Source of the DNA: a virus
Virus genome (UHGV): UHGV-1657534
Length of the DNA: 14,188 bases
Direction: 5' to 3' (one strand)
Shown here: one piece after another, positions 11,096-14,188 of the stretch
How the letters are laid out: each line of letters starts with the position of its first letter
Position numbering within the stretch: position 1 is the stretch's first letter
Notes under the pieces: model-generated
Database searches by the model: none
Told to the model about the DNA's origin: nothing
The model's input: only the letters and a program-made list of their open reading frames with translations
Position numbers and translations under genes: made by a program

Positions 11096-11171
11096 TGGTG
11101 CCGATTAACGGACTCGAACCGCTGACATCCTGCTTACAAGGCAGGCGCTCTACCAACTGAGCTAAACCGGC
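11096..11171 (-). tRNA. tRNA-Thr (anticodon UGU)
   Basis: Minus-strand 76-nt GCCGGTTTAGCTCAGTTGGTAGAGCGCCTGCCTTGTAAGCAGGATGTCAGCGGTTCGAGTCCGTTAATCGGCACCA. Canonical cloverleaf with anticodon loop CTTGTAA and encoded CCA; acceptor arm resembles E. coli tRNA-Thr. Probably the P1 trnT equivalent. Confidence 0.85.
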
Positions 11172-11173
11172 AT

Positions 11174-11249
11174 TGGCGATGGTGGATGGATTTGAACCAT
11201 CGACCCGTTGATTAACAGTCAACCGCTCTAACCGCTGAGCTACACCATC
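11174..11249 (-). tRNA. tRNA-Asn (anticodon GUU)
   Basis: Minus-strand 76-nt GATGGTGTAGCTCAGCGGTTAGAGCGGTTGACTGTTAATCAACGGGTCGATGGTTCAAATCCATCCACCATCGCCA. Perfect acceptor, anticodon (GTTGA/TCAAC) and T stems, anticodon loop CTGTTAA, encoded CCA. Separated from tRNA-Thr by 2 nt. Probably the P1 trnA equivalent. Confidence 0.85.
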
Positions 11250-11714
11250 ACTTGCCGGGTACGTCTCCGGCGAGGGCTTCCACCTCCGTATGCTTTTCGG
11301 CGCACCGCGCCCTGGCTGCAATTCGGTAACAGGGGATGCACAACCCTGGCTTCCAGCGTGATTAGCGCCTTCAGCATGACGGGATATACCCGTAAATTCG
11401 TGGAACTGTACCCAAAGTGCTGTTAAGCACCGCTGTTACGCTGAAAAGAAGACGCAACAGGAAAGGACGCTGACCAACAGATGGCCCCTTCTCGTTCATC
11501 TGGTTAATCACACCAGCGCCCTTACCTGTTGTGCCTCCCCGTTCCCTAATACACAGACGGGGACACTCTGCGGTCGATTTTTTGACGGGGGACGACTCAT
11601 ACCCCGTGGCGTCTGGCTTCTTAGGCCGCTACCATCATCAGATCATCGTTTGCATTTACTTTAATGGTCAGTTTCTAAACCGCCGCAAAGTCGCTAACCA
11701 TGACGAAAACCCTG

Positions 11715-11740
11715 AAAAAAACGCCCACCCGAAGATGGGC
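11715..11740 (-). terminator. rho-independent terminator (UUCG tetraloop hairpin + U7) downstream of the methyltransferase gene
   Basis: The minus-strand RNA reads GCCCAUC-UUCG-GGUGGGC (7-bp stem including one G-U, UUCG loop; plus 11723-11740) followed by G and UUUUUUU (plus 11715-11721). It lies 185 nt downstream of the MTase stop codon. Confidence 0.6.
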
Positions 11741-11904
11741 AAACTGGAAGCTCGTAACGCACTTCGGTGTTGCCACTTAGGCGTATGGTCAACCTGGCAA
11801 CTCGGCGTCATGAGGGGGAAGGAGTCACTACCCCGCCATACTTGCCGCCGCGCCTGTCGCGGCTAACAGCTAAATCGCTCTATAAATCACGATTCATTGA
11901 GGCG

Positions 11905-11934
11905 ATATTACACTAATAAATTTATTAGAGCAAT
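11905..11934 (-). promoter_or_regulatory. P1 C1-repressor operator (17/17 consensus match) with overlapping inverted second site, embedded in a sigma70-like promoter
   Basis: The minus strand reads ATTGCTCTAATAAATTT (plus 11918-11934), identical to the P1 C1 operator consensus as I recall it. A second site in opposite orientation, ATTACACTAATAAATTT (plus 11907-11923, 15/17), overlaps it by 6 bp, giving the palindrome CTAATAAATTTATTAG. On the minus strand TTGCTC (-35), a 17-nt spacer and TAATAT (-10, plus 11905-11910) form a promoter reading toward the terminator and tRNA genes. The operator overlaps the last codons and tandem TAA TAA stops of the MTase gene. Confidence 0.6.
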
Positions 11935-14153
11935 ATTGCTATAACGTCATGAGCAACACCTCGAGTGTCCCCCTTACAAGACACAGAACGTCTGGCAAAA
12001 AGAGGTTCCACTCTGAAGCCACTGTCCTGATAAAGTTCTCTGATGTTTGGCGCGCCACTGTTAGTAATGAGAACCTTTGCACCTCGGCGATGAGCATCCG
12101 TCAACAGAGACACCAGGCGTTTTTGCTCTTCAAACTTAAAGTCATGACCGGAATAGTTCGTGAATCCCTCTGTATTTGGGAGCGGTTCATACGGCGGATC
12201 GCAAAAGATGACATCTCCTTCTCCGGCAGCTTCAATCACCGCAGCAAAATCACCACATACAAACTCAGAACGCCCTTCCGCACCAAGGAAGGCTTCCATC
12301 TCCTGCAATGGGAAATACGGAGTTTTATACTTCCCATAACCGACATTGAACTCACCGGCTTGGTTGTAACGCGTCAATCCGTTAAAACAATGTCGGTTCA
12401 GGAACAAAAACGCCGCTGCGCGATGTAAATCATCATAGACTTGTTTGTTAAACGCATTCCGTACTGCCAGGTATCCTTCCTGCGTGTTGTAGTCCTGGAA
12501 GAAACGATGTGCCAGAGTGATAAGTGAATGCGCCTCGCGTTGCAGAGTCTTGTAAAAGTTAATCAGGTCAGCATTCACATCATTTAGCAGATTTTCCTGG
12601 TATCCGGCATTCATGAAGACAGCTCCGCCACCAACGAAAGGTTCAATCAGGCGCTTCCCTTCTGGCAAATAGCGAAAGATTTGTTCCAGAACACCAAATT
12701 TTCCACCAGCCCATTTGAATATGGACCGTTCGAATTCTGCCGCTGGTTTAACTTTTCGCTCTTTTGTTTCACTTCCTTCTTTCTGCCGACATGCAGCCTT
12801 GGTAATCCGCTCGCCAATCCAGCGCATTACTGGTATCGCCATACTATTGCCGATCGCTTTGTAACGAGGTCCGTCAGCTGCAAGCATGGCGGCCTCTTCT
12901 TCACTTAAATCAGGATCGTGATTGCGAAGGTATATAAGTTCATCTGAAGTAACTTTCTTACGCTTTCCCGTTGGAATCAACGTATGTCCATCAGGAAAAC
13001 CTTGCAGCCTTTCACATTCGACAGGAGTCAGACGGCGAACGCTCATCATATGAGGTAAGTAACCATTCTCACCTAATTCGCCTTTTTCAATACTTTCCTG
13101 CCCCCAAAAAGATAACGCAACGGCGTCAGCTGTTGCGCGGGAATCAAGAGTAAAACTTATCTCTTTTTGCCACCCTTTACCCTGCGGTCCAGCATCATCT
13201 TTTCGCCCAATTTGTGCATGTTGTAGCGAATACGCAACAGCTGGTGGGCATCCCGCGTTTTGATTGCTATTAGCAGAGTTACCAGCTCGTAAAGTTGGGG
13301 AAATCTCACCACCCGCATCCTGCCCATAATTTTTGCTTGTAAACGCAATAGCTTTCTTGCAAGAAAACACAATTGGAGCTTCATGATTACAAGTAAGAGT
13401 AGGTGATGTCCCATCATTTTTTATTTCTGCCCCCCCTTGCCCATGCGCCATGCAATACACAAGTCCGCTGCCTCGCTGCGCAAAAATCTCTTGGTTACTT
13501 GCACCAATCCCACCAGTATTGTGTGACTGGTTAAGTGTCGGGTGAGGATTTACAGGGTTATCCCAATGGCTCCCGCTTTTAATGCCATTTCCAACATTTC
13601 CGGCAACTTCCTTCCCCTCGCCTCTGCTCGGCGCAATATCCCGGCGCACGCCTTCGAACTCAAAAAGTACCGTTGCGGGATCGAGGTCTGTTCGAGCACT
13701 TGCGACAACAAACACGCGTCGGCGTCGTTGTGCCACTCCGAAGTATTGGGCATCAAGGATTCTCCAGGCCACTTTTCGCTGCGGTCCATAAATACAACCA
13801 CACTGCGGCCACTTTGGAGCATGGCAACCGGTTTTGACATCCCACCGCCAGAATGCGTTACTTTTTCCTGATTCAGGTCGATCACCTGGTTCGAATGGCG
13901 CATCTTCTCCAGCCAATCCGGCAAGGAAACATCCGAAGGCGTTATCTGCCGATGACAAGACTCCTGGGACATTTTCCCAGACGATAACTGCTGGTTTGAG
14001 AAATGACTCAGCCCGTTTGTCGTCAATTGCATTTGCAAGCTCCACATACTTTAAAGTTAGCGCGCCACGCTCATCATCAAGCCCACCACCTAATCCCGCG
14101 ATACTGAATGCCTGACAAGGTGTTCCCCCGACGAGCACATCAGGGGATTCGAT
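11925..14153 (-). CDS. dmt: bifunctional DNA methyltransferase: C5-cytosine MTase domain fused to Dam-like N6-adenine MTase domain (P1 Dmt-like); 5' end truncated by contig end
   Basis: Single minus-strand frame of about 743 genomic codons. N-terminal part has C5-MTase motifs IV (GTPCQAFSIAG), VI (VIVWENVPG), VIII (VAQRRRRVFVVAS), IX (RRLTPVECERLQGFPDGH) and X (KAIGNSMAIPVMRW). C-terminal part aligns by eye with E. coli Dam (FKWAGGKFGVLEQIFRYLP..EPFVGGGAVFMN...NRHCFNGLTRYNQAGEFNVGYGKYKTPYF...CDPPYEPL). Motif I (FxGxGG) is absent because the ORF runs into the adapter; the ORF-track start is a GTG inside the adapter. Ends in tandem TAA TAA. Confidence 0.85.
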   Translation of the reverse strand: MESPDVLVGGTPCQAFSIAGLGGGLDDERGALTLKYVELANAIDDKRAESFLKPAVIVWENVPGVLSSADNAFGCFLAGLAGEDAPFEPGDRPESGKSNAFWRWDVKTGCHAPKWPQCGCIYGPQRKVAWRILDAQYFGVAQRRRRVFVVASARTDLDPATVLFEFEGVRRDIAPSRGEGKEVAGNVGNGIKSGSHWDNPVNPHPTLNQSHNTGGIGASNQEIFAQRGSGLVYCMAHGQGGAEIKNDGTSPTLTCNHEAPIVFSCKKAIAFTSKNYGQDAGGEISPTLRAGNSANSNQNAGCPPAVAYSLQHAQIGRKDDAGPQGKGWQKEISFTLDSRATADAVALSFWGQESIEKGELGENGYLPHMMSVRRLTPVECERLQGFPDGHTLIPTGKRKKVTSDELIYLRNHDPDLSEEEAAMLAADGPRYKAIGNSMAIPVMRWIGERITKAACRQKEGSETKERKVKPAAEFERSIFKWAGGKFGVLEQIFRYLPEGKRLIEPFVGGGAVFMNAGYQENLLNDVNADLINFYKTLQREAHSLITLAHRFFQDYNTQEGYLAVRNAFNKQVYDDLHRAAAFLFLNRHCFNGLTRYNQAGEFNVGYGKYKTPYFPLQEMEAFLGAEGRSEFVCGDFAAVIEAAGEGDVIFCDPPYEPLPNTEGFTNYSGHDFKFEEQKRLVSLLTDAHRRGAKVLITNSGAPNIRELYQDSGFRVEPLFARRSVSCKGDTRGVAHDVIAILL

Positions 14154-14188
14154 CTTTCTCTTATACACATCTCCGAGCCCACGAGACT
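14154..14188. other. Illumina Nextera adapter / Tn5 mosaic end, reverse-complement copy (sequencing artefact)
   Basis: 14157-14188 TCTCTTATACACATCTCCGAGCCCACGAGACT is the reverse complement of bases 3-34 of the window. There is one mismatch at 14156 and the last 2 nt are absent, so the exact genome/adapter boundary is uncertain within 14153-14157. Confidence 0.9.

Follow-up and report, generated by a model that had tools for sequence, protein, structure and literature searches.

The locus studied here raises the question of whether an AT-rich near-palindrome lying on the stop codons of a phage DNA methyltransferase gene is a working repressor operator and, if so, which operator it is and which promoter it controls. 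The sequence occupies positions 11907-11934 of a viral contig of 14,188 bp, which was analyzed over its full length and is referred to below as the window. We conclude, with a probability of about 95%, that it is Op72ab (Obanab), a bivalent operator belonging to a P1-like plasmid prophage and fused to P1ban, an early sigma-70 promoter. The site, the promoter and the repressor are already known, and because all three are annotated in the reference genomes of P1 and P7, the finding adds no new biology. Its value lies in the confirmation that the contig is a plasmid prophage of the P1 type whose early-gene control is intact.

The contig belongs to the P1-like plasmid prophages (Punavirus), and its identity to P1, P7 and related plasmids is 96-99%. 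P7, P1 and other Punavirus genomes match the region at 96-97.5% identity; over the whole window, P1-like phages and more than 400 plasmids of E. coli, Salmonella and Klebsiella match at 98-99%. On the minus strand, the order is dmt, leader, tRNA-Asn, tRNA-Thr, accessory genes, a tRNA with a CAT anticodon (tRNA(CAT)), ban and dbn; tail genes on the plus strand converge on this operon. The gene dmt (11925-14153, minus; open reading frame 11925-14168), annotated in P1, P7 and the plasmids, codes for a Dam/Dcm-type DNA methyltransferase. tRNA-Asn (11174-11249) and tRNA-Thr (11096-11171), both found by ARAGORN and Rfam on the minus strand and both annotated in P1, are the first genes of the ban operon (11096-11249), and the distal part of the operon (6371-9095) contains, besides tRNA(CAT), ban (7369-8739, minus), the gene for a DnaB-type helicase, and dbn (6371-7369, minus). 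The CAT-anticodon tRNA (9020-9095, minus) is called tRNA-Met by ARAGORN, and its P1 orthologue is annotated as tRNA-Ile2 (ileX-like), a reading in which the tRNA is specific for isoleucine after lysidine modification. Directly upstream of it is a 275-amino-acid reading frame (9123-9950, minus), named "SPFH domain-containing protein" in the closest plasmids, in a place where P1 instead has the small genes tciA, tciB and tciC. The interval from gene 26 to the operator is about 570 bp longer in the window than in P1.

Positions 1-37 and 14154-14188 form an inverted pair, CGAGTCTCGTGGGCTCGGAGATGTGTATAAGAGACAG and its reverse complement, which we take to be the Illumina Nextera (Tn5 mosaic-end) adapter. 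Database matches all end at 30 and at 14153 or earlier. Together, the adapter ends and the limits of the matches indicate that the window represents a complete contig whose adapters were left untrimmed, and that dmt is truncated at its 5' end; that end is lost to the contig end and the adapter (from 14154 on), and the 3' end of the gene lies inside the operator.

Window positions 11905-11934 read ATATTACACTAATAAATTTATTAGAGCAAT on the plus strand. A direct read of the minus strand at 11918-11934 gives ATTGCTCTAATAAATTT, a 17/17 match to the C1 operator consensus, which appears in this form in the part of PMC8546580 that cites Lobocka et al. 2004. This half-site corresponds to Op72a (Obana) at 68667-68683 of the P1 record AF234172. 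A second site, ATTACACTAATAAATTT, lies in inverted orientation at 11907-11923 on the plus strand, corresponds to Op72b (Obanb; AF234172 68678-68694), and matches at 15 of 17 positions, with mismatches at positions 4 and 6. Both sites have 6 bp in common (11918-11923), and together they make a 28-bp near-palindrome with 12 of its 14 pairs symmetric. Op72a contains the stop codon of dmt, TAA (11927-11925), along with another TAA in the same frame (11924-11922). The initial annotation had claimed an exact match to the C1 consensus, an overlapping inverted site with 15 of 17 matches and an overlap with the methyltransferase stop codons; the direct read bears out all three, and the first also agrees with the consensus as quoted in PMC8546580.

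Alignment to the P1 reference around dmt places the 28 bp exactly on an annotated operator. At the orthologous bases, AF234172 describes a divalent C1-controlled operator, Obanab (formerly Op72ab), that controls ban expression, and labels its half-sites Obana (formerly Op72a, monovalent) and Obanb (Op72b). The P7 record AF503408 likewise annotates Op(ban[a]) and Op(ban[b]), with Op(ban) at 70972-70999. All 28 operator bases and the next ~70 bp are identical across the window, P1 and P7, and the position is orthologous to that of Op72ab, over the stop codon of dmt and ahead of the leader, tRNA-Asn, tRNA-Thr and ban. Compared with P1 Op72a,b plus P1ban (AF234172 68667-68696) and with P7 Op(ban), the window has the same operator bases, the same hexamers, the same 17-nt spacer, the same overlap with the dmt stop and the same orientation toward the leader, the two tRNA genes and ban, with no difference in operator or promoter. 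By contrast, the 10 bp directly upstream of the operator differ, such that the Dmt C-terminus is ...VIAILL in the window and ...VLGILL in P1. The ...VIAILL allele is common to about 18 of 87 relatives; P1 and P7 carry other alleles. It creates a perfect 12-bp palindrome, AGCAAT/ATTGCT, at 11930-11941, abutting Op72a, and with it arises a weak third operator-like half-site, ATTGCTATAACGTCATG, at 11935-11951 on the plus strand (8.4 bits).

The promoter elements are interlaced with the operator. The -35 hexamer of P1ban, TTGCTC (11928-11933, minus; a minus_35_signal at AF234172 68668-68673), is identical in the window, P1 and P7, and is followed after a 17-nt spacer by the -10 hexamer TAATAT (11905-11910, minus; a minus_10_signal at AF234172 68691-68696). 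Op72a spans the -35 hexamer as well as the dmt stop codon, and Op72b spans four of the six bases of the -10 hexamer. AF234172 lists P1ban as a sigma 70 promoter, without the word "predicted". The TTGCTC-17 nt-TAATAT pair had been noticed in the initial annotation, and it is present on the minus strand just as described (11933-11928 and 11910-11905) and coincides with the annotated P1ban. The accompanying proposal, that a repressor-controlled promoter at the 3' end of the methyltransferase gene would point at the leader and tRNA genes, matches the curated annotation of P1 and P7 at the same bases. A generic promoter scan did not call the P1ban pair, which matches the sigma-70 hexamers at 8 of 12 positions against the nine needed. 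Since the pair falls below the cut-off of the scan, the sequence by itself is insufficient for a promoter call, and it is the P1 annotation that establishes the promoter. Coordinate transfer of a "predicted sigma 70 promoter" (AF234172 68651-68682) places a counterpart of P2ban at 11919-11950 on the minus strand; this promoter is a prediction only, with a -35 hexamer ATGACG (11950-11945) and a -10 hexamer TAAATT (11924-11919) that lies within the operator.

A weight matrix gives the same answer as the consensus. Twenty annotated P1 C1 sites were extracted in all, and the matrix was built from 18 of them, leaving aside Op72a and Op72b. These 18 sites yield the same consensus as ATTGCTCTAATAAATTT, and Op72a is the only one of the 20 with a perfect 17/17 match. 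When the window was scanned, Op72a ranked first (11918-11934, minus; 26.5 bits), followed by the counterpart of P1 Op82/O26 (1484-1500, plus; 23.6 bits), Op72b (11907-11923, plus; 21.2 bits) and the counterpart of P1 Op83/Oppp (577-593, plus; 18.2 bits). The best score per shuffled window (n = 100) had a mean of 11.9 and a largest value of 19.9 bits, and the annotated P1 sites score 15-26 bits, save for the weakest, Oc1b (6.6 bits). The O26 counterpart, ATTGCACTAATAATTTT, has two mismatches, is the same as AF234172 78528-78544 and lies between gene 26 and pmgL. The Oppp counterpart, TATGCACTAATTAATTT, has four mismatches and adjoins pmgM; the P1 sequence at 79435-79451 is CATGCACTAATTAATTT. 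In P1 itself, the operator Omat (Op2b; AF234172 2628-2645) is annotated on the minus strand; the consensus-like sequence CATGCACTAATAAATAT is found there on the plus strand, with a score of 20.7 bits versus -3 bits on the annotated strand.

Which of the P1 operators the site corresponds to is also settled by the alignment. The initial annotation had tentatively suggested a counterpart near map unit 68. This is wrong: the site is Op72, and Op68 is Odmt, which lies elsewhere. The old operator numbers appear to be map units, in percent of genome length, with 68,680/94,800 giving 72.4% for Op72 and 65,150/94,800 giving 68.7% for Op68; the suggestion probably confused a kilobase position with a map unit. 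Correcting the operator name to Op72ab, not Op68, is a by-product of the analysis. Op68 belongs to the same C1 operator family and the same genome region, and its sequence, ATTGCTCTAATAAATAT, has a single mismatch. Unlike the window site, it is monovalent, lies 3.5 kb away at P1 65,145-65,161, fronts uhr-hrdC-dmt and controls Pdmt; its counterpart falls past the end of the window. The other bivalent C1 operator of P1, Op99a,b (Oc1ab) at the c1 promoter, has the same architecture as the window site, i.e., inverted 17-bp sites with a 6-bp overlap, 28 bp in total, over a sigma-70 promoter. However, its half-sites are much weaker (3 and 7 mismatches, versus 0 and 2 in the window site), and its role is the autoregulation of c1, whereas the window site serves an early lytic operon.

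To sample related loci independently of the operator, the C-terminal 300 residues of Dmt were used. The operator was present at the dmt stop in all 83 enterobacterial loci, 75 of which were identical and eight of which had one or two substitutions. All of these substitutions fell within positions 6-17 of the Op72a 17-mer, including the 6 bp shared with Op72b, and the 11 bp unique to Op72b were invariant in the 83 loci. At a Legionella locus with a Dmt homologue (41% identity), the operator was absent. Among 67 unique sequences, the mean column variability was 0.004 in the operator versus 0.085 in the 20 bp directly upstream; the values for the last 300 bp of dmt and for the leader were 0.022 and ~0.04, respectively. 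The gene dmt ends in ATA TTG CTC TAA, and the two leucine codons, TTG CTC, which lie in Op72a, showed no synonymous change in 87 sequences, next to three preceding codons that are hypervariable in the same 87 sequences (V-L-G, V-I-A, V-M-A, V-F-G and others). Leucine codons that stay fixed beside hypervariable codons point to a constraint beyond protein coding. The eight natural substitution variants among the 83 copies could serve as operator mutants. They come from loci L010, L012, L031, L043, L063, L080 and L085 (at position ~2394 in each) and L015 (at 1610), and examples of the variant Op72ab sequences are ATTGCTATAATAAATTT, which creates TATAAT, ATTGCTCTAATATATTT and ATTGCACTAATAAATTT.

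Each asymmetric site is bound by one C1 monomer, and binding is strengthened by the co-repressor Lxc (Bof). The gene c1 is not on the 14,188-bp contig, and the presence of C1 in the contig's own element is therefore deduced from relatives. The closest complete relative, plasmid pE2-2 (NZ_CP048917; 99.0% identical over the window), encodes a "phage repressor protein C1" that agrees with P1 C1.100 at 280 of 283 residues, together with reading frames that have the lengths and map positions of P1 coi and lxc, a correspondence of length and position only. Scanning both genomes at a cut-off of 14 bits gives 21 operator-like sites in pE2-2 and 21 in P1, and many of those in pE2-2 are P1 operator sequences. 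The near-identical C1 and these sites bear out an earlier suggestion that the window is tied to P1-type immunity. C1 binding at the site and C1 control of ban are known from the P1 annotation and literature and are, for the contig, predicted by identity to P1; in P1, ban is C1-controlled, and its induction was measured after heat inactivation of C1.100 (PMC4713147). We infer that the same C1 control operates in the contig's own element.

In a lysogen, two C1 molecules would occupy both of the inverted, overlapping 17-bp sites. C1 on Op72a would cover the -35 hexamer, and C1 on Op72b would cover most of the -10 hexamer; since the two half-sites overlie the hexamers of P1ban, bound C1 would have to exclude RNA polymerase from the promoter. 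The whole operon, from the leader, tRNA-Asn and tRNA-Thr through the accessory genes and tRNA(CAT) to ban and dbn, would then be silent. Upon inactivation of C1, P1ban would fire.

The site could instead be an idle inheritance, if the element had lost C1 or changed its repressor, and would then be a relic that no longer regulates ban. The lack of c1 on the contig fits such a course of events, as does phage D6, which keeps the leader and the tRNA genes (92% identity) without a P1-type operator and thereby shows that the control region is exchangeable. On the other hand, the operator is intact and far less variable than its flanks in the 83 relatives, two further intact C1 operators are present in the window, and a near-identical c1 is found in pE2-2. 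Because of this conservation, in particular, we regard a relic as very improbable.

It could also be argued that the AT-rich palindrome is mainly an end signal of the dmt unit, with promoter control secondary; it would form a hairpin, or its bound protein would be a roadblock to transcripts reading through from Pdmt or the late promoters. The palindrome is placed exactly on the dmt stop codons, and bound C1 might in principle block an elongating polymerase. However, the stem would consist of A-T pairs only and has no U-tract after it, and a terminator scan finds no terminator at 11905-11934. Moreover, the asymmetric 17-mers fit a protein-binding consensus common to ~20 scattered sites, which do not coincide with gene ends, and the P1 record places a promoter at the operator bases, so that a dmt end signal as the main role is exceedingly improbable. 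A functionless chance match, for which the AT-richness of the motif is the sole argument, can be dismissed, given the strong conservation, the full identity to an annotated operator and a consensus search with up to three mismatches, in which three sites were found in the window versus 0.04 expected, a number reached in 0 of 200 shuffles. A C1 operator that controls P1ban thus remains the reading we adopt.

The leader that separates P1ban from the tRNA genes contains features of its own. The P1 record labels part of it a "dicF-like region", which by approximate transfer from P1 68791-68892 falls at 11709-11810 (minus). The Rfam DicF model found no match in the leader even at E<=10, and the label is therefore unsupported by that model. 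What the terminator scan does find within this region, about 160 nt into the P1ban transcript, is an intrinsic-terminator-like hairpin, GCCCAUC-UUCG-GGUGGGC, plus seven U residues (11715-11741, minus; stem 11741-11722). A terminator-like hairpin in the leader implies that the transcript is attenuated or processed ahead of the tRNA genes. Folding of the leader as a whole was not significantly more stable than that of shuffles (z = -1.6).

Phage D6 (L090, 2470-2840) has the terminator, a tmRNA-like module, tRNA-Asn and tRNA-Thr in common with P1, at 92-100% identity. The homology between D6 and P1 ends exactly at the terminator hairpin, and the upstream control region of D6 is unrelated. A scan of D6 upstream of the shared leader for a diverged C1 operator found none of at least 12 bits. 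D6 thus has the module and the tRNAs but not the C1 operator, which makes control by Op72ab a feature specific to the P1 lineage.

The module, which is unannotated, lies downstream of the terminator-like hairpin at 11440-11711 (minus) and comprises a start-less frame, two pseudoknots and a long hairpin. The frame (11650-11618, minus) reads GCA AAC GAT GAT CTG ATG ATG GTA GCG GCC TAA, which translates as ANDDLMMVAA*. The peptide resembles the SsrA tag of E. coli, ANDENYALAA, and, as in tmRNA tags, its C-terminus is hydrophobic and rich in alanine. The frame is not preceded in phase by ATG, GTG or TTG, and eight codons upstream of it is an in-frame TAG. The stretch at about 11711-11518 has BLAST matches (70-88%) in 258 phage records of unrelated families, among them Ackermannviridae, Schitoviridae, Drexlerviridae, other siphoviruses and lambdoid phages; in nearly all of these records the matched stretch lacks an annotation, and in many it adjoins tRNA genes. 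In HK633, it is located ~270 nt downstream of PR'/qut. A search with a two-block pattern found the module in more than 120 IMG/VR contigs among the matches listed.

Comparison of 105 unique copies shows that the 10-codon frame, of the form AN[DE]x..[AV]A*, ends in TAA in all 105 and encodes 18 peptides. Entropy at codon positions 1, 2 and 3 is 0.48, 0.30 and 0.71, respectively, and the last codon is alanine (GCC, GCG or GCT) in 104 of the 105. The constancy of the frame, the peak of variability at the third position and the alanine ending speak for a coding frame. After the stop codon come two H-type pseudoknots. In a hand-drawn structure, 89% of the cells are paired, versus 37-50% with slid partners; both partners change in 13 of 19 pairs, and there are 88 compensatory cells, versus 7-27 in the slid controls. 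These pairing and compensation values were reached in 0 of 500 shuffles.

Standard models do not recognize the module as a tmRNA. In a permissive Rfam search, RF04321 (tmRNA_permuted) has a match in the window that spans the tag-like frame and scores 24.1 bits. Six other phages score 19-33 bits, all short of the gathering threshold of 47; all Rfam tmRNA models (RF00023 and its clan) are below threshold in the seven phages, and ARAGORN at default settings finds no tmRNA in any of the seven. A consistent alanine-type tRNA-like domain, with a G3:U70 acceptor stem, a T arm and a CCA end, was not found: P1 has a stem, GGGCGCU/AGCGUCC, with G3:U70, the corresponding pair in D6 is G3:C70, and it differs again in other phages. 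ARAGORN with lowered thresholds reported a "permuted tmRNA" with the right tag but inconsistent ends, and this was rejected as evidence for a tRNA-like domain. A search for T arms and acceptor stems returned ordinary tRNA genes or isolated candidates only. A scan of viral contigs with a loose 12-mer pattern gave mostly chance matches and was discarded, and AgvB (RF02702), suggested by a CACAACA motif, was rejected, as no Rfam AgvB match was found at E<=1-10. A 2014 survey of tmRNA genes (PMC4131195) lists none in enterobacterial phages, and our literature searches found no description of the leader module.

A tentative reading, which we consider possible but rather doubtful, is that the P1ban transcript carries, within its first 450 nt, a phage-borne template for a trans-translation tag, or a decoy, that is kept silent by Op72ab. 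If so, Op72ab would be a lysogeny switch that silences the module RNA in P1 lysogens. Alternatively, the module may have a promoter of its own, or most P1ban transcripts may end at the terminator ahead of it. It may also resemble tmRNA only in part, since no alanine-accepting domain was found. Apart from the operator finding, the ban-operon leader with its conserved tmRNA-like RNA is a lead of its own.
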